64,000 nucleotides of DNA from Curvularia clavata (taxonomy: Eukaryota): positions 1,550,001 to 1,614,000 of the forward strand of contig CP089274.1 of assembly GCA_023920165.1 (NCBI GenBank), given 5' to 3'. The translations under genes were made by a program, and so were the position numbers. Shown here piece by piece: positions 41,840 to 48,867 of this stretch; position 1 is the first letter of the stretch; each line of letters starts with the position of its first letter. The notes beneath the pieces are model-generated. The model saw only the letters and a program-made list of their open reading frames with translations. It had not been told where the DNA came from and did no database searches.

Positions 41840-43913
41840 CTACAAAACCAGTGGCGCAATCCATTCACACTTGGGCGGTGTGATTGGAATATCTTCGTCG
41901 TCATTGAAACGACCCAATTGTGCAACACGTTTGTAAATCTCTTCGAGGGCCTTTCCTTGCTCGCCCTCGTACTCTTCGGGTTTACCTTCCTTGTAGCGAT
42001 CCTTTGCATCAATAGGTTTGCCGTCGGGCGTAACACCAGCTACATGCGGACGTGCGGCTGAAGCAGGCTGTGGTTGTGATGCTGGCTGGGCGGTTGCAGG
42101 CGTTGTGGTGGCCGCGGCCTGGGCGCCAAAAGGAGATGGCGAGGTCGCTGAGGCAGTGGATGTTTGTGGCTGGGAGAAGGGATTGGCGGGTTGTGACTGT
42201 GTTGCAGTAGGTTGTGTGGCTTGAGTGCCAAAAGGTGAAGGTTTGCTCGGTTGTCCAAAAGCTGAAGTTTGTGATGCAGTTGCACCGCCAAAAGGATTGG
42301 ACTGTGCAGGTGTTTGTTGGGTTTGTCCAAAGGGGCTTGGTTTCTGGGATTGTTGGGCTTGTTGACCGAATGGCGAAGACTGAGATGACTGCTGAGCCTG
42401 CTGGCCGAATGGCGACGGCTGAGTCGATTGTTGCGCTTGTTGTCCGAAAGGCGATGTGCCTGACTGTGCTGCTTGCCCGAAAGGAGATGTGCCAGATTGT
42501 GCGGCCTGTCCGAATGGTGATGCACTAGATTGTGCAGCTTGGGCAAATGGAGACGCGTTCGCACCTGGCTGAGCGGCTTGGCCAAATCCACTTTGGCCAA
42601 AGCCAGGCTTACTAAAAGGATTCGGCTTCTGTCCCAGAGCATTTGTCTGCCCAAAACCGGATGCCATTCCTGGTGTTGATGGTTTCCCGAAAGCGGAGCC
42701 TGCACCCATGGTACTGGTCTGTCCAAATGCACTTCCTGACCCTGGCATAGACGGCTGACCAAATCCAGAAGTACCGAAAGCAGGCTTCCCGAACGCACTA
42801 CCCCCACTGCCCAATGAGGAAGTCTGTCCAAACGGCGATGGTTTTTGACCCAAGGCAGAGGCCGCACCAAAGGCGGACGTGGTTTGACCCGAGTTAGACG
42901 CTTGGGCAAAGGGTGAAGCAGTTTGGCCGGGAGTTGACGCCTGGCCAAAGGCTGAAGTTGTTTGGCCTGGATTTGAGGGTTGGCCAAACGCAGACGTGGT
43001 TTGTGCTGGATTGGATGGCTGACCAAAGGCTGGTTTACCGAAAGCCGGAGTCGATGTCTGCCCGAACGCTGGTGTTGAGGAAGAGGCTGCCGTTTGGAAT
43101 GGATTTGCCGGCGCTTTCATGAATGGATTCGCTGCTGTATTTGAAGACGCAGATGCTGTACTGGTTGATCCACTTGCATTTACGTTGCCTTTGGCGATAT
43201 CGATTCGATTAGGATGAATGTTGGCGCCTTCTTCAATATAACGAACAGCACCAGCAATATCATCAAGGATTGCTTTCACTTGTTGCTGCATTTTGTCGTT
43301 AAGGGCAGATTCTTCTTGTTGCTATAATTCGTTAAGCTCTGGAAAAAAAAGCGAGTTATTTAGACTTACCGCTTGTGGCTCACTGCCTGCGGCTCGGAGG
43401 GTGTAATACCGCAAGCGGAGCTCCTCTGGGCTAATTTCAACTGAACCCTCGATGAGCTGGCGGGGAGCTTCTCGCCCTGGCCCATAGCAAGACAGCGGAT
43501 AGATTGGACGCTGTGTAGTGAGATCGTTCTTCATGTCGTCTCGGTCTAGACCGTAGCTTGGCTTGCCATCACGGTTACCTGTATCTCCCGTCAGCACCGT
43601 TTCAACAATTGCCTGATACGACTGAGAACTATAGATGGTGATGATTCAGGCAATTGATAGGACAAGACATACCCCCGAACGTGCTGGAACTGTTATTTTG
43701 CCCCGGACGGTAGCGGTCGCCATTGAAGGCACCAAAGCGGTTGTTGTTTGAGCCGCCAAAGCCGCCTCCCCCCCGGTTTGCATCTCGTGAACTTCCAGGA
43801 TGCTCATTCTTGCAGGAATCTGGTTCATGTGAGTTTGACATCTGGATGCGACAACATGGCGGCTCACCTCCAAACTTGCATGTGCCTCGCTGGTAGTAGG
43901 TGCAGACAACCAT
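41840..43913 (-). CDS. AMO1: FG-nucleoporin Nup42/Amo1/NUPL2 with N-terminal CCCH finger; exons 43913-43868, 43819-43673, 43578-43370, 43321-41840
   Basis: After splicing, C-x7-C-x5-C-x3-H (CTYYQRGTCKFGDSCKNEH); YPLSCYGP..EISPEELRL; numerous SPFG/SAFG repeats; C-terminal IP..PP Gle1-binding-like tail. Confidence 0.9.
42300..43060 (-). repeat. Coding tandem FG-repeat array inside AMO1 (~33-nt PFGQAAQSGTS and ~39-nt PFGQQAQQS/AFGQPSNPGQTTS units)
   Basis: Imperfect tandem units are visible in both DNA and translation; boundaries are approximate. Confidence 0.8.
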
Positions 43914-44740
43914 TGTTGACGGACAATCAACGTGACTTTTGCCGAGACTGATGGATATGGGTCCAAATGAGCTGTGGGGAATTAGTAGGGTCTAGGGAGA
44001 GGACGCCGCTGGGAGATATGGACAAAAGAAGAAAGCGGTGTCTGAGCGGCTGAAGCCGAGGCTGGGGAGAACGGAAACTTCAGGCGAACGGACGCGTCGC
44101 GCTAGCCAATCAACGCGAACGAACAAAGCGCCTTCTTTTTGTCTTGAGGATATGTAGCAGTCAGAGGCACAGCGCAGAGGTTACCGTTGTTCTCCTGCCT
44201 GTCGATTCTTGCTATCAAGGCTCCCTTCCAAGGCTGGTTGCTGGCTGCCGCCGCCGCCGATTTGAAGTTGTGCATATCGAATGCCCGTAACCAGCGGCCA
44301 TCAGTCGGTGTACATAGTAGAAAAGGCTGGTGCAGACGACTGGGAAGTACACCAGGCGACAGGAAGATATGAAAAGTAAGGCATACCGCGTTTGAGAGGC
44401 TATTTGCTCAAGTGCACGTCAATCCAATGAGATGTGTCGGCAGCATCTTGAGCTGGGTGTGATGTCGATGGTGTTGAGAGCAGAGCGCGACGCGCTAGTC
44501 TTGATGGAGCACTAGCGCATATGTCCCGAACCTGCGGGCCTTCCACGTACGCCCGCCGCCATGGAGGTGCCATAGACTGTGGCCAGGATGCGTCTTGCGC
44601 AATGTACTTGCAACCGCAACACCCCGTACTGCTGTCACACCCCCCAATTCGACAACCATAGGCTCTCCAAACGCACCCGCTAATTCACAATTCCCAGCGT
44701 CCACCCTTGTTGCGACCCATCGCTTGGCATGACGAGGTAA

Positions 44741-45071
44741 ATGCACGCTTTCTCCATTGTTACCATTGGCATCTTCGTCGCGGGATACTCGACTGCCCGC
44801 TGGGACCTTGTGACCCGCATCTACGAGCTAGCCATATTTGCCTGGGACCACGGTGTCGTTACAAGGACTACCAAGGGCTTCGCCTTGCTGTCTCTGCTGT
44901 TCTTCCTCTTCATATTGCCCGTCGTGCGCATCGCAGCTCACGAGACAGATCTGGTCAGTAGGCGTGCACATGTGTTCGCTGCTCTGGTTGACTGAACATG
45001 CATAGCATCCCAGACTTGCAGGCGCAGGCATTTCCGCACGCGAGCAGCTCAAACGTCGTGGTTCCTTCTAG
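44741..45071 (+). CDS. Small 92-aa putative two-TM membrane protein immediately upstream of GPI1; exons 44741-44953, 45006-45071
   Basis: MHAFSIVTIGIFVAGYSTARWDLVTRIYELAIFAWDHGVVTRTTKGFALLSLLFFLFILPVVRIAAHETDL|HPRLAGAGISAREQLKRRGSF*; canonical 52-nt phase-0 intron (gtcagt...ttgactgaa...tag); C-ending codon bias. Confidence 0.72.
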
Positions 45072-45091
45072 CGGGATAGCAGGATGAGGAC

Positions 45092-47321
45092 ATGGTCACG
45101 CACAATGGCTTGATGCGCATATTTTGGCCATCAGACGTCCCCAACGATTCGGCCCCTGGTGTTCTGGTGGGCTTTCAGAATTCCAAGACAGATGTCTTCG
45201 TCGTGGCCGTTCTACAAGATGTCGAACTTCGCCAGGTTGAAAATGCGCTGCTGGTAGGGACGTTGCTGCGACATAGTCCCCATGATATCCAAGAATTGCT
45301 GCAACGCTGTGGGCATTGCGCGCTTCGAGCTGTTGGCTGCGTGAATTCGAAAAGCTCGCCAGACCAACATGGCACCGAACCCCTAACAGTATATACCGAG
45401 CCTTCGGCCCGCTTTCCGCGCATACACTGCCCTACCACCGCCATCACAGCCATTCAAGTCATCGTATACGATCGGCCGCATCCCACGCGTATGCAATATC
45501 TCTCGCTGAACCCCATCACACTGGCACTGGGTGACAAAACAAGGGTAACTGAGTGGGATGGAGTATTTGCTGAGCACGAGGAAGCAGAAACAAAGGAGCG
45601 GAAGAGGAAGGCAGAGCTCATTGACCGTCTGAAGCTTCACACAGTCATAGCTCGTCCGCCTACGCAAAAGGAACTAGCGTTGCCAATGCTCATCGAGCAG
45701 GTCAACTGTTCTTACGAGCTCAACGCTCTCTTGCAAAAAAACATTGGCATGATTGGTCGGCGCATGAAGCGGGCGCTGAGTGTCAGTGAGCGCATGGCAG
45801 AGTCTGCCAACAATCTTTGGGACTATGCTTGGATGGTGCTTGCTTATGTGTTCAGGGTCTGGATATGGCCCATAGCTGCGCAGCTCTTCATAATCGCACT
45901 CATCACTCATCGCATACTGGGTGAAGCTGTGATTCTCGTCTTGCATTGGCAGCCTCGAGCTTCGGACTCTCCTGCCTTGAAGGATATTTCCGCGACGGCA
46001 CAGCAGATTGATATTCGGCTGCAGCAATCGTGTTACTGGCCTATTCAGTACCTTACCTTGCGTCGACGCAAGGCCAATTGGGAGAGTATCACCAACAGCC
46101 ATCCAGAGTACATTCGATTCTACAATAGTCTGTGGTTAGTCGCAAATGATGTAATCATGGGTATTGCTGTCGGCACATTCATTATTGAGAACAAGTCATT
46201 TGTGGCAGCACAGGTCGACACCATATTCAGTGCCTGGTCAGTGGAGGGGCTACGCCGCATGATATCATGGCTCATGGGGTGGCCGGGAGGCCTCAAGCTC
46301 AACACCGAGTTGGCAGCGTTCCTGGGTGACTTGTTTCTTTGGGTCATTGACTACTGGGCTAGTAAGTTTATCGCGTTGACACAGAGACCGCTGCTAACGA
46401 AAGACGATCAGACTGCATATCGCTTCTGCGACCACATCTTCCCGCACTCATCCAGGTTATCGGCTACTCATCCTTTGCGGGCGCAACCATGCCAATATCA
46501 ATCTTCTCAGACCTCGTCTCACTACTCACCATACACATTTATTCTTTTTATGTTGCGTCTGCTCGCATCTTCCATTGGCAGCTCACGATCATCATTTCTC
46601 TCTTTCACCTCTTCCGGGGTAAGAAACGCAACATCCTGCGGAACCGAATCGATTCGTGCGACTACGATCTCGACCAACTGCTGCTCGGCACCATCCTATT
46701 CACGCTACAGTTTTTCCTCTTGCCGACAGTTTTTGTCTTCTACCTTACATTCGCAAGCGCAAGAATTGCCGTCATTGGTCTCAAAGCAAGCCTAGAGATG
46801 GGACTAGCGTGTCTCAACCACTTTCCGCTGTTTGCCGTCATGTTACGACTTAAGGACCCTGGGCGATTACCTGGAGGTATCTGTTTCGAGCTACAAGACA
46901 CAGGCAACATTCCAGACAAAGCCACCACGCCTGACCCGGTACCGACAGCTTACGTGTTGCTCAAAGTAAGTTCTTCTATCTGCGTCATCGGCTTCGTCCT
47001 GCTTACAAAGTGTAGTCCGTGCCACTGTCGCTTCGTGCCATGTTCCAGCCATATTTTGACCTGGGCGATCGCATACGAAAACACTACTTCTCGCCTAGCG
47101 TGTTGCTGTATCTGGCATCGGGCCAATTCGTCCCACCAATACATCGACGCAATCTATACAGACTACAATATAGCATGTTACCAGCGAAGAGGGCAAGCAT
47201 AGGTGATTTGTGGAAAGAGCTAACTGAGCGCAACCAGCGGTCGTCGCAGGCATCCAATGGCCATGCCATGACGCCGTTTAGAAGAGGCATATCAAGTAGC
47301 AAAAGTAGAAAAATTATTTAA
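45092..47321 (+). CDS. GPI1: GPI-GlcNAc transferase subunit Gpi1/PIG-Q; exons 45092-46361, 46412-46965, 47016-47321
   Basis: MRIFWPSD..GVLVG, QIDIRLQQ.CYWP.QY, YIRFYNSLWLVANDVI.G, WLMGWPGGLKLNTEL and SLFHLFRGKKRNILRNRIDSCDYDLDQLLLGT. Confidence 0.96.
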
Positions 47322-47872
47322 GTTTCCGTACCAGTGTTGCATACTCTCTTTGCCACTTTTACTTTTAAATCATTATACCTAGCCCTTTCCTCTGCTAACT
47401 TATCATGCTCTACTATTCTCTCGTAAAAAAGCTTAGATATAGCCGGGGATTTTGTTACTACTCCTTGCTGGTATTTACTCCTCTCTTACTAGTAGTAAGA
47501 TAAGAAATAAAGAGCGAAGAAGCAAAGAAAAAGTATCAGATAAACCATCTTTGCTCCGTGCCTTTGCTAGTTTCAGTACACGCTGACCGTAGTCGCATGT
47601 ACACCCTCCTAGCTGCGTAGCCCAATCTTACGATTCCTGGTTCTGTCGGGGCCCTTATTATTGCTGGGTTTAACTTCCTTATTGTTCTTCTCCAGCCATT
47701 CTACCTTTTTCTTCTTTTCTTCTTCTTTTTTTTTGTCTAATTGGCTTCGCCTGTAGCTTGAATCGAATCCACGTGTCTTTTCACATTTTTTGAAGCCCGA
47801 TTTGTCGCTTCCCTGTGATCTAATGTATCGTGCGAGGAGCCCACGCGATATTGCTAAGAGGAGGTGGTTTTT

Positions 47873-47980
47873 TTCTTCTTCTTCTTCTTCTTCTTCTTCT
47901 TCTTCTTCTTCTTCTTCTTCTTCTTCTTCTTCTTCTTCTTCTTCTTCTTCTTCTTCTTCTTCTTCTTCTTCTTCTTCTTC
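47873..47980. repeat. (TTC)36 / (GAA)36 microsatellite
   Basis: Uninterrupted 108-bp trinucleotide repeat. Confidence 0.97.
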
Positions 47981-48867
47981 TGATGGTATAATGGAGACTT
48001 TTTGAGTTTGACAGTAGAGTTCACCCATGAGCAGGACAGGAGAACCATAAGGATGCGGGTGCTCCAGGACAGATTCTTCTCTTACATGGTTGTTATAATC
48101 ATTTGTTCATCATGTCGTTAGGTGTAGAGGGAGATATCATTGCATCGCCATAGCATGATAATCAGTTACGATTACCTAGTTGTTGTCTGCACCTGCCACT
48201 TCGTATATTACACCATAATATGCCACAGGCTTCTGAGAACCACCACCTGCATGAATCTTTTGTTTCGCCATGCACTACACTATGGTATGGAAGACATGAC
48301 CGAGGAGAGGTACACAATGTAAGGGCGTCACTGACATCGCTCAATAAGACACACAGATCAATCAGTGGGTAGTCATAGGTACAAGTAAATTTGGCAAACC
48401 AAAATCCTATGGACTCTACAAAAATTGAGTTTTCATATTCTGAGCTATGTCTTGCTGACATCCAAGGTCCTGGCAAGCTAGTTTGCCGCTCTAAGCCAGC
48501 GATGAGAACCGTGACTGAATCACAAAGGTAGACAACATCAGCAAAGAGTAAGATCCATGTGAGACATTTGAGCAATCTGCTCAAGCATTTTCTGTATTTG
48601 TAAGATATCAGAAATGATGCATGGTCTCGAAGACCCTAATAGATCATGGCCATACATCTTTTGGACAATTTTGGCAAGCCCCTCAAGCTGCGAAGAGCTT
48701 GTTTTTTAATCGACAAAAAAGTCCCCTTAAGATTATGTAAGAAAAAAAGCAGAAAACCTCCATATTCCAGAAGAAAGAACTAACACCACAAGCCTTGGCC
48801 TGTAGATCGAGATAGCCGGCGAACCGGAAGCGGCAAGCGATTCTTCAAAGCACCTAAACGCCTGACA

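Follow-up and report, generated by a model that had tools for sequence, protein, structure and literature searches.

A 92-codon gene upstream of GPI1

The window (a stretch of 64,000 nucleotides from contig CP089274.1 of Curvularia clavata) contains two tightly packed genes on its forward strand: ORF1, a small spliced gene for a 92-residue microprotein, and GPI1, whose spliced product comprises 709 residues (Table 1). All the features that the original prediction had described were found where it had placed them, and its identification of the downstream gene as GPI1 is borne out by a match to Pfam PF05024 (E 7.7e-39; score 134 bits, gathering cut-off 22.2) and by the names Gpi1 or pig-Q given to 1303 homologues with E <= 1e-20. 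The canonical ORF1 intron, likewise predicted from the letters alone, is removed in RNA contigs: the joint from 44952/3 to 45005/6 skips exactly 52 nt with GT..AG borders in contigs of four out of four runs. The GPI1 ATG at 45092 is out of frame with ORF1 and lies 20 nt beyond its stop. The outer bounds of the interval first singled out, 44729 and 45113, correspond to two features left unnamed at the time; at the former begins the ATG of a mini-uORF, and at the latter the TGA of a 9-codon uORF ends on the base with which the ATG for Met8 of GPI1 (45113-45115) begins.

Table 1. Features of the ORF1-GPI1 locus, in positions of the window.
Feature	Position	Strand	Basis
5' leader of the putative shared transcript	44571..44740	+	RNA contig 5' ends at 44571, 44582, 44642
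Mini-uORF: ATG, two codons, TAA	44729..44740	+	Sequence
ORF1 exon 1, codons 1-71 of the 92-aa microprotein	44741..44953	+	ORF and homologues
ORF1 intron, 52 nt, GT..AG (GTCAGT...CATAG), phase 0 after codon 71	44954..45005	+	RNA contigs
ORF1 exon 2, codons 72-92 (21 codons) and TAG; ends RRGS(F)	45006..45071	+	Sequence, orthologues
Inter-ORF spacer, 20 nt	45072..45091	+	Sequence
Out-of-frame uORF, 9 codons, TGA stop	45084..45113	+	Sequence; ATG 8 nt before GPI1 ATG
GPI1 exon 1, 423 codons	45092..46361	+	Pfam PF05024, contig structure
GPI1 intron 1, 50 nt, GT..AG	46362..46411	+	RNA contigs
GPI1 exon 2	46412..46965	+	RNA contigs
GPI1 intron 2, 50 nt, GT..AG	46966..47015	+	RNA contigs
GPI1 exon 3 to TAA stop	47016..47321	+	Sequence
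3' UTR, very short	47322..47333	+	Contig ends 47328-47333, poly(A) loose end after 47333

The arrangement is conserved. Of 80 related loci, 74 have GPI1 directly downstream of ORF1 in the same orientation; in the remaining six, the sequence stops <= 80 nt after ORF1, and the adjacency holds in all 74 loci with enough downstream sequence. Across 54 distinct loci the spacer between the two genes measures 6-63 nt (median 20) and stays within 6-32 nt in 53 of them; its lengths include all three residues modulo 3, and there is thus no fixed frame relation between the two ORFs. These loci are phylogenetically related, and counts among them are therefore not counts of independent events. The conserved adjacency with short spacing that had been anticipated is in this way recovered, and the argument that the gap leaves no room for a terminator or promoter of its own agrees with both the 20-nt spacer of the window and the persistence of the adjacency.

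Constraint on ORF1 and the build of its product

ORF1 goes far beyond what chance would produce because 736 database proteins match its exon 1 at E <= 0.01. A product of 90-93 residues could be rebuilt in 79 of 81 sources (the 80 loci and the window), the two exceptions being a locus cut by a contig end (L015) and another without the N-terminus (L041). The rebuilt orthologues have no, one or two introns at two fixed positions, and the position of the window intron is common to orthologues. Fifty distinct coding sequences gave 1225 pairs, 563 of them usable; over these, the median dN/dS is 0.089 (IQR 0.067-0.12, maximum 0.268); the tail encoded by codons 72-92 is also constrained, with a median pN of 0.164 versus a pS of 0.824. 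Records of the microprotein are named from Dothideomycetes, Leotiomycetes, Sordariomycetes and Eurotiomycetes, and sequences from Penicillium, Talaromyces, Venturia and Xylona were reached through fused gene models. ORF1 is a real and strongly constrained gene of several Pezizomycotina classes, under the purifying selection that the original prediction had called for.

Two hydrophobic segments had been proposed for the microprotein. The second of these stands, residues 46-66 being strongly hydrophobic (Kyte-Doolittle mean of 2.7 over 17 residues), but the first, at residues 3-19, is only marginal (1.64) and forms a helix of only 16 residues in the AF2 model. The helices predicted by AF2 span residues 3-18, 21-36 and 39-71, the middle one being amphipathic. 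The C-terminal RRxS site noticed at the outset is kept as an invariant RRGS in 25 of 25 aligned orthologues. As part of the explanation favoured below, and with the same degree of confidence, the microprotein is probably an ER-type membrane protein of 92 residues that belongs to an unnamed family; its predicted build would comprise, in this order, a weaker hydrophobic helix at the N-terminus, an amphipathic helix and one strong transmembrane helix, followed by what is likely to be a basic C-terminal tail ending in RRGSF.

Family searches gave the microprotein no name. A Pfam scan of the window protein returned no family at E <= 1, and at E <= 10 the scan of 25 orthologues returned noise only (DUF454 in two of the 25, Subterisin in one and YoqO in one). 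Pfam presumably carries models for the PIG-Y, PIG-P and DPM2 families; none of the 25 orthologues matched any of the three at E <= 10. A sequence-profile search of the PDB yielded no match at E <= 10; Foldseek against the PDB (best E 5.7) and the VIA wide fold search (best Z 5.2) retrieved generic helices and generic helical proteins, respectively, from a PDB copy that seemingly contains no GPI-GnT chain, as a Gpi1 query produced no relevant match either. In the ESM Atlas, the microprotein found its own clusters, labelled 'pig-Q', and no match among named clusters. The small partner or regulator of GPI-GnT that had been envisaged, together with the suggested kinship with PIG-Y, PIG-P or DPM2, thus found no backing in Pfam or in these searches of solved structures.

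Spliced RNA contigs and start codons

Single spliced contigs of ~2.6 kb run from 44571, 44582 or 44642 to 47328-47333 and cover both ORFs; they come from three runs of three studies under two organism labels. Because these contigs are spliced, the sequencing runs are RNA-derived. The full-span contigs start ~100-170 nt upstream of ORF1, and one of them has a poly(A) loose end past GPI1. Between 45005 and 46361 the contigs match the genome colinearly, and no intron is removed across the ORF1-GPI1 junction; a contig of a relative bridges 44586-45153. In a second species, the metatranscript L004 (2669 nt) contains both ORFs with three introns removed; at 99.4-100% identity to the genomic locus L023, it is the spliced form of this sequence. 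L031 and L041 are likewise spliced and span both ORFs. All such contigs are assembled from short reads, and assembly merges overlapping transcripts and drops rare forms; they do not prove a single molecule, and a GPI1-only mRNA, whether minor or major, might have its start within ORF1. The first 114 nt of L041 were considered as an alternative 5' exon and rejected, as they mismatch the genomic counterpart and look chimeric; they resemble what we take to be a plant psbA-like sequence. Two upstream ATGs, at 44588 and 44602, count as part of the leader only on the condition that the longer 5' ends are genuine.

The start codons of the two ORFs differ in context. Position -3 of the ORF1 AUG is T in 49, C in four and G in one of the 54 distinct loci and never A, and position +4 is C in all 54; at the GPI1 AUG, position -3 is a purine in 48 of the 54. 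YNNAUGY contexts are reported to disfavour initiation and to give leaky scanning (PMC10853783). Internal Met codons are absent from ORF1 in all 45 orthologues tested, and its out-of-frame ATGs number 38, whereas synonymous recoding predicts 77 and not one of 2000 simulations gave so low a count; in the window ORF1 there are none, versus 2.82 expected (P = 0.008). The depletion is only about two-fold, and in many lineages one or two out-of-frame AUGs persist within ORF1 (mRNA position 60, 83 or 102). The combination of a weak ORF1 AUG and an AUG-poor ORF1 is also the leaky-scanning signature described for green-algal bicistrons (PMC11892635).

Two further devices surround these start codons. 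The TAA of the mini-uORF ends on the base before the ORF1 ATG, and the mini-uORF ATG itself has G at -3 and A at +4. The same 3-codon uORF ends directly against ORF1 in 11 of the 54 distinct loci; in other lineages, a short uORF ends 6-18 nt upstream of ORF1. An ATG stands at exactly -8 of the GPI1 ATG in 34 of 54 distinct loci, which have 12 different spacer lengths; the context of this AUG is strong, and simple leaky scanning does not predict its presence.

A probable shared mRNA for two proteins

The explanation that we favour, and hold to be probable as a whole, is that the mRNA of GPI1 is bicistronic, with ORF1 in first place, and that Gpi1 is read from the same mRNA. One transcript would start ~100-170 nt upstream of ORF1, lose three introns and acquire its poly(A) just after GPI1, and ribosomes not initiating at ORF1 would make Gpi1 from this shared mRNA. 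Their main route would be leaky scanning past the poor AUG of ORF1 and then along ~340 nt nearly free of AUGs. A likely helper would be the tiny uORF ending on or just before the ORF1 AUG, as a result of which re-scanning 40S subunits may skip ORF1 and regain competence only close to GPI1. Of the operon-like unit first proposed, the adjacency, the contigs with both ORFs and the weak ORF1 AUG hold good, as do, for leaky scanning or reinitiation, the start contexts and the AUG depletion; bicistrony of single molecules and the route of Gpi1 initiation are what we infer from them. The locus is real, conserved and apparently an undescribed bicistronic one; a search of the literature outside subscription journals and bioRxiv supplements returned no description of ORF1 or of a bicistronic GPI1. 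From position alone, which is what links the microprotein to GPI-GnT, we infer that it works with Gpi1/GPI-GnT in the ER membrane, for instance as an assembly or regulatory subunit, with an activity perhaps switched at the RRGS site. More tentatively, and as a possible but doubtful refinement, the microprotein could be a hitherto unrecognised part of the GPI-GlcNAc transferase, a subunit or an assembly factor specific to Pezizomycotina, dosed against Gpi1 by a multi-AUG cassette in which the mini-uORF, the weak ORF1 AUG, the -8 AUG and the GPI1 AUG would follow one another on one mRNA.

The same contigs could arise from two overlapping and functionally separate units, in which an ORF1 mRNA reads through GPI1 and Gpi1 is mainly made from a shorter mRNA that starts inside or just after ORF1, the packing reflecting compaction and a shared 3' end. 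Merging of overlapping transcripts is what short-read assembly does, and there are precedents: assembled 'polycistronic' RNA-seq transcripts of Zymoseptoria are reported to be mostly overlaps or rare read-through (10.1101/2023.04.26.537486), and in Fusarium graminearum 914 mostly bicistronic Iso-Seq transcripts are described alongside independent ones, by a pipeline that required ORFs of 100 aa and would have missed a 92-aa ORF (10.1101/2021.11.08.467853). We nevertheless consider separate units unlikely: read-through is not expected to hold a spacer within so narrow a range over several classes, nor would it keep a pyrimidine at -3, a C at +4, the complete lack of internal Met and the lowered number of out-of-frame AUGs; moreover, X1, X4 and X22 have no contig end or loose end between 44642 and 47328, with the proviso that contigs drop rare forms. 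Less likely still is that ORF1 acts as a long cis-regulatory uORF that throttles GPI1, or whose nascent peptide brings the mRNA to the ER, the finished peptide having no job. ORF1 does lie where a uORF would, the start codons form several layers (the mini-uORF next to ORF1, then the -8 AUG ahead of GPI1) and the inter-ORF spacing of green-algal bicistrons is reported to be statistically like that of uORFs (PMC11892635). Against this, all 92 residues are constrained, including the 21-residue tail after the intron, and the invariance of RRGS at the very C-terminus would be relevant only to a finished protein. The regulatory uORF peptides known so far, among them the arginine attenuator peptide, fall well short of 92 residues.

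The identity of the microprotein allows for two other readings. PIG-Y and Eri1 have roughly 70 residues and two helices, and the microprotein, which is also small and hydrophobic and adjoins a GPI-GnT gene, might be a highly diverged Pezizomycotina orthologue of this smallest subunit; PIGY is itself expressed from a bicistronic mRNA. Reviews describe PIG-Y and Eri1 as subunits of the same enzyme, GPI-GnT. This orthology appears improbable in view of the Pfam result (nothing beyond noise at E <= 10 in 25 of 25 orthologues), of a length of 92 residues and a predicted three-helix layout as opposed to the shorter two-helix proteins, and of the separate ERI1 homologue listed for Colletotrichum graminicola, GLRG_01976, which lies 54 locus-tag numbers away from GPI1 (GLRG_02030) and was assigned by BLAST with statistics not shown (PMC8949851). 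That ORF1 represents N-terminal coding exons of Gpi1 is what many database models imply, the microprotein being fused to the N-terminus in 25 of the best 120 Gpi1 database matches and some records of 84-92 aa being called 'phosphatidylinositol glycan class Q' by UniRef and JGI. We give this reading almost no credence: a stop codon closes ORF1 in every modelled locus, the spacer lengths take all three residues modulo 3, neither the RNA contigs nor the L004 transcript is spliced across the junction, the fused models jump at differing places and delete conserved residues, and the Gpi1 N-terminus, M-x5-L-M-R-[IV]-F-W-P, is conserved from its own ATG.

The proposed bicistronic mRNA has its closest parallel in the conserved nuclear bicistronic loci described for the green algae Chlamydomonas and Auxenochlorella, where mutagenesis supported leaky scanning (PMC11892635). 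As reported there, these loci share with ORF1-GPI1 a short ORF1 (279 nt here; medians of 291-357 nt in the algae), a weak ORF1 start context, an under-representation of AUGs before ORF2 and a short spacer, and their ORF1 often encodes a small protein of unassigned function, as here. By contrast, the GPI1 locus belongs to filamentous ascomycetes and has a median spacer of 20 nt, compared with 40-183 nt in the algal loci as described (PMC11892635); it adds a mini-uORF abutting the ORF1 AUG and a conserved AUG 8 nt before the ORF2 AUG, and it is known from sequence and RNA contigs, whereas leaky scanning in the algae is backed by mutagenesis.

Three other systems offer more partial comparisons. 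The GPI1 locus resembles the uORF-controlled delayed reinitiation of GCN4/ATF4 in that a very short uORF ends just before a bypassed start and is followed by a long AUG-poor stretch; in GCN4/ATF4 the bypassed element is a decoy uORF, whereas ORF1 is a conserved protein-coding gene. Murakami et al. are said to have described, in 2005, a bicistronic mRNA for human PIGY and PREY (PYURF), which would similarly have two ORFs on one mRNA, one for a GPI-GlcNAc transferase subunit and one for a tiny membrane protein; there the subunit is the small downstream ORF, whereas here it is the large downstream ORF (Gpi1), and PIG-Y has no detectable similarity to the microprotein. Polycistronic or read-through transcripts of fungi, which Gordon et al. 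reportedly found by long reads in 2015 and to which those of F. graminearum and Z. tritici cited above belong, also have two same-strand ORFs on one RNA. These are mostly facultative read-through products with ordinary spacing and independent transcripts as well, whereas in the GPI1 pair a 6-32-nt gap fixed over several classes goes with features of the start codons that suggest an mRNA intended for the reading of both ORFs.

GPI-anchor synthesis, the first enzyme of which is an antifungal target, is indispensable to the fungal cell wall; a fungus-specific membrane protein genetically tied to GPI1 would be a candidate component or regulator of GPI-GnT. If true, its role as a subunit would be the filamentous-fungal counterpart of the yeast cross-talk between Ras/PKA and GPI-GnT via Eri1. 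Polycistronic RNAs in ascomycetes have so far mostly been regarded as read-through noise, and an obligate-looking bicistronic nuclear mRNA kept over several ascomycete classes would be rare in fungi. With three nested start-site devices, the locus also offers a compact natural system for leaky scanning and reinitiation. Annotation pipelines mishandle it: the 25 fused records among the best 120 for Gpi1 join both proteins via invented introns, a spurious extension at the N-terminus being the result in many public Gpi1 sequences, while records of the microprotein itself are mislabelled 'PIG-Q'.

The ORF1 gene and its pairing with GPI1

GPI1, the gene for the Gpi1 subunit of the GPI-GlcNAc transferase (GPI-GnT), is preceded in the window by ORF1, a spliced gene for a 92-aa membrane microprotein. 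The exons, intron, stop codon, intergenic gap and frame difference described in the original prediction are all present in the window sequence, and the downstream ORF is Gpi1 (Pfam PF05024, E 7.7e-39).

Features of the ORF1-GPI1 region and its neighbours (window coordinates)
Feature	Position	Strand	Remarks
FG-repeat nucleoporin gene, divergent neighbour	41840-44416	-	Pfam Nucleoporin_FG, E 1.8e-7
Mini-uORF, ATG + two codons + TAA	44729-44740	+	Stop abuts ORF1 AUG; own AUG with G at -3
ORF1 ATG	44741	+	Window sequence
ORF1 exon 1, 71 codons	44741-44953	+	Window sequence
ORF1 intron, 52 nt, GTCAGT...CATAG	44954-45005	+	Window sequence
ORF1 exon 2, 21 codons + TAG	45006-45071	+	Window sequence
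9-codon out-of-frame ORF, ATG at -8 from GPI1 ATG, strong context	45084-45113	+	TGA overlaps Met8 ATG (TGATG, to 45115)
GPI1 ATG	45092	+	20 nt past ORF1 stop, different frame
GAA/TTC-type simple repeat, long	47609-48048	both	Just downstream of GPI1

ORF1 is almost certainly a real gene. Exon 1 alone matches 736 database proteins (E <= 0.01), many of them 92 aa long, annotated as "hypothetical proteins" in Dothideomycetes and Leotiomycetes and 75-96% identical; an exhaustive profile search returned 261 cluster representatives (E <= 0.001), the named ones including Paraconiothyrium, Beauveria, Purpureocillium and Histoplasma, and fused gene models extend the range to Penicillium, Talaromyces, Venturia, Phyllosticta, Diplodia and Xylona. 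Judged from these named matches and fused models, the predicted microprotein family covers at least five classes, the Dothideo-, Leotio-, Sordario-, Eurotio- and Xylonomycetes; no homologue outside Pezizomycotina was found among the matches listed (the best 120-150 per search, most without a name). Mean column identity is 87% over an alignment of 13 full-length orthologues, in which the conserved region takes in the post-intron tail.

A set of 81 sources was formed by the window and the best 80 of 237 confirmed metagenome or metatranscriptome loci, and 79 of them allowed a product of 90-93 aa to be modelled, the exceptions being contigs L015 (cut by the contig end) and L041 (chimeric 5' end). 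Introns sit at two fixed sites, one following codon 40 and the other codon 71, and number none, one or two per model (22, 12 and 22 distinct CDS, respectively). The dN/dS ratio lies far below 1, as anticipated for ORF1, with a median of 0.089, an interquartile range of 0.067-0.12 and a maximum of 0.268 (Nei-Gojobori, 50 distinct 92-codon CDS; 563 of 1225 pairs usable, synonymous sites being saturated in 660).

The expectation that ORF1 stays directly upstream of GPI1 at short distance is borne out as well: 74 of the 80 loci have GPI1 directly 3' of ORF1 in the same orientation (tblastn, window Gpi1 exon 1 as query), and the six loci without a match (L015, L016, L043, L046, L055, L066) stop 2-80 nt past ORF1. 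Over 54 distinct ORF1-to-GPI1 sequences (53 loci and the window) the spacer from stop to ATG measures 6-63 nt (median 20) and is at most 32 nt in 53; its lengths fall in all residues modulo 3, and the frame relation of the two genes is therefore not constant.

Transcription and translation of the pair

The sequencing-run labels gave RNA as a guess only. The contigs of these runs lack every intron of the ORF1-GPI1 region and of the neighbouring gene, with joints of the GT..AG or CT..AC type, they leave intergenic DNA mostly uncovered and one of them ends in poly(A); they are therefore RNA-derived. Runs X1 and X4 share an organism label and come from two studies; X22 bears a different label and comes from a third study. 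Each of the three yields one contig of ~2.6 kb that starts at 44571, 44582 or 44642, ends at 47328-47333 and has three introns spliced out, the one of ORF1 and the two of GPI1; an A-run follows 47333 in X22. In X9, from a relative (~90-95% identical), a spliced contig bridges 44586-45153. At 99.4-100% identity, the 2669-nt metatranscript contig L004 corresponds to genomic contig L023 minus three introns; it encodes ORF1 (92 aa) and, 20 nt further on, a Gpi1 of 711 aa that shares 99% identity with an Alternaria record. The same spliced-versus-genomic pattern is seen for L041 against L007 and for L031 against L047, nt 1-114 of L041 being a probable chimeric join excluded from the RNA evidence. 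Co-transcription of ORF1 with GPI1 is very likely, an assembled contig over two genes being no proof of a single molecule.

The excluded 5' end of L041, probably a chimeric assembly, has no match in its genomic counterpart L007 and resembles the beginning of the psbA message of plant chloroplasts. At the other end of the unit, the GPI1 stop codon ends at 47321; with contig ends at 47328-47333 and a loose poly(A) end there, the RNA implies a GPI1 3' UTR of only ~12 nt. The related transcript L004 runs at least 57 nt beyond the Gpi1 stop.

A rival structure, a single microprotein-Gpi1 polypeptide, appears in the databases, where 25 of the 120 best Gpi1 matches are fused models of 756-829 aa with the microprotein at the N-terminus. 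These models enter Gpi1 at differing points and delete conserved residues of one or both proteins, and the RNA contigs contain no splice joining ORF1 to Gpi1 in this manner; they are annotation artefacts produced through invented introns. From them the name "PIG-Q", the database label of Gpi1, has spread to stand-alone 84-92-aa records. The fused records fall among database proteins P0278-P0395.

Translation of Gpi1 from a shared mRNA mainly via leaky scanning or bypass is the somewhat favoured reading. Across the 54 loci, the ORF1 AUG has T (49), C (4) or G (1) and never A at -3, and C at +4 without exception, and a purine (G or A) stands at -3 of the GPI1 AUG in 48; a pyrimidine at -3 combined with one at +4 is described as disfavouring initiation and causing leaky scanning across eukaryotes (PMC10853783). 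Internal Met is absent from ORF1 in 45/45 orthologues tested. Out-of-frame ATGs within ORF1 total 38, whereas recoding every protein with the codon usage of its own GPI1 predicts 77 (nine loci omitted as offering insufficient codons), and a total as low was reached in 0 of 2000 simulations; the window ORF1 has 0 against 2.82 (P = 0.008). This depletion is partial, and because the loci are related the 45 orthologues do not count as independent tests; the result is to be read as a trend. Green-algal bicistrons, for which leaky scanning is backed by mutagenesis, share both the weak ORF1 start context and the AUG depletion (PMC11892635). The locus probably belongs with these conserved nuclear bicistrons; the family of its ORF1 product is new, and its extra start-site devices are unusual.

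One such device is the short upstream ORF (uORF). A three-codon uORF abutting the ORF1 ATG is found in 11 of 54 distinct loci and is conserved among the Pleosporales-like ones; other lineages have in its place a short uORF ending 6-18 nt before ORF1, of 3-9 codons in ~20 further loci; the remainder include some with an overlapping out-of-frame uORF and six without an upstream ATG within 120 nt. By analogy, the window arrangement is a candidate GCN4-like bypass: 40S subunits rescanning after the mini-uORF would pass over the ORF1 AUG and could regain competence across the AUG-poor 340 nt before GPI1. The other device is an ATG at exactly -8 of the GPI1 ATG, present in 34/54 loci across 12 different spacer lengths and always with a purine at -3 (34/34), the other offsets from -30 to -1 being nearly ATG-free (4 occurrences in all). 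The ORF that begins there is mostly 3-9 codons long, and in 16 loci its TGA overlaps the ATG of Met8, the eighth codon of Gpi1, itself conserved in 46/54. On a quick tree the -8 ATG is scattered over deep branches (at least 4-5 changes needed). It could compete as a start codon, relay reinitiation to Met8 or serve for tuning.

Neither ORF1 nor a bicistronic GPI1 was described in the full-text literature searched, a scope that left most subscription journals and preprint supplements outside. In two long-read studies of ascomycetes, polycistronic RNAs are regarded as read-through and GPI1 goes unmentioned (10.1101/2021.11.08.467853, 10.1101/2023.04.26.537486); the former sets a 100-aa ORF minimum, which would leave out the 92-aa ORF1.

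Identity of the microprotein

Of the two hydrophobic segments originally proposed, residues 46-66 form one strong membrane helix (Kyte-Doolittle 2.7), whereas residues 3-19 are only marginal (1.64); an amphipathic helix lies between them by hydropathy analysis. This pattern is consistent with the AF2 model (helices 3-18, 21-36, 39-71 and 82-88; mean pLDDT 79). The predicted C-terminal RRGSF is present in the 13-orthologue alignment, RRGS being invariant in 25/25 orthologues.

No known family was recognized by a Pfam scan of the microprotein and its orthologues, and neither a PDB sequence search nor the Atlas named clusters gave a match. Foldseek and VIA fold searches likewise found nothing known, in a PDB set apparently devoid of GPI-GnT structures, since a Gpi1 query against it found nothing relevant either. 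An identity with Eri1 is argued against by a study of Colletotrichum graminicola that reports a separate ERI1 homologue, GLRG_01976, apart from GPI1, GLRG_02030 (PMC8949851), an assignment derived from BLAST with statistics not given. A functional partnership between the microprotein and Gpi1/GPI-GnT is a tentative proposal, its sole basis being the fixed co-expression with Gpi1. The putative PKA-type site RRGS is no more than a lead, of interest because in yeasts Ras/cAMP-PKA signalling is documented to communicate with GPI-GnT via Eri1.

Neighbouring features

The divergent nucleoporin has a weak CCCH zinc-finger match at its N-terminus, and three introns of its gene are confirmed by RNA contigs. 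Its X4 contig reaches 44416, so that only ~155 nt separate the divergent transcripts at their 5' ends. In X9, a contig of the nucleoporin gene skips 415 nt (43971-44387) with CT..AC ends, which suggests a minus-strand 5'-UTR intron in this relative; the skip was not seen in contigs of the window organism. Beyond GPI1, the simple repeat yields poly-Glu, poly-Lys and poly-Ser ORFs over the two strands, and GC content falls there to ~0.40.
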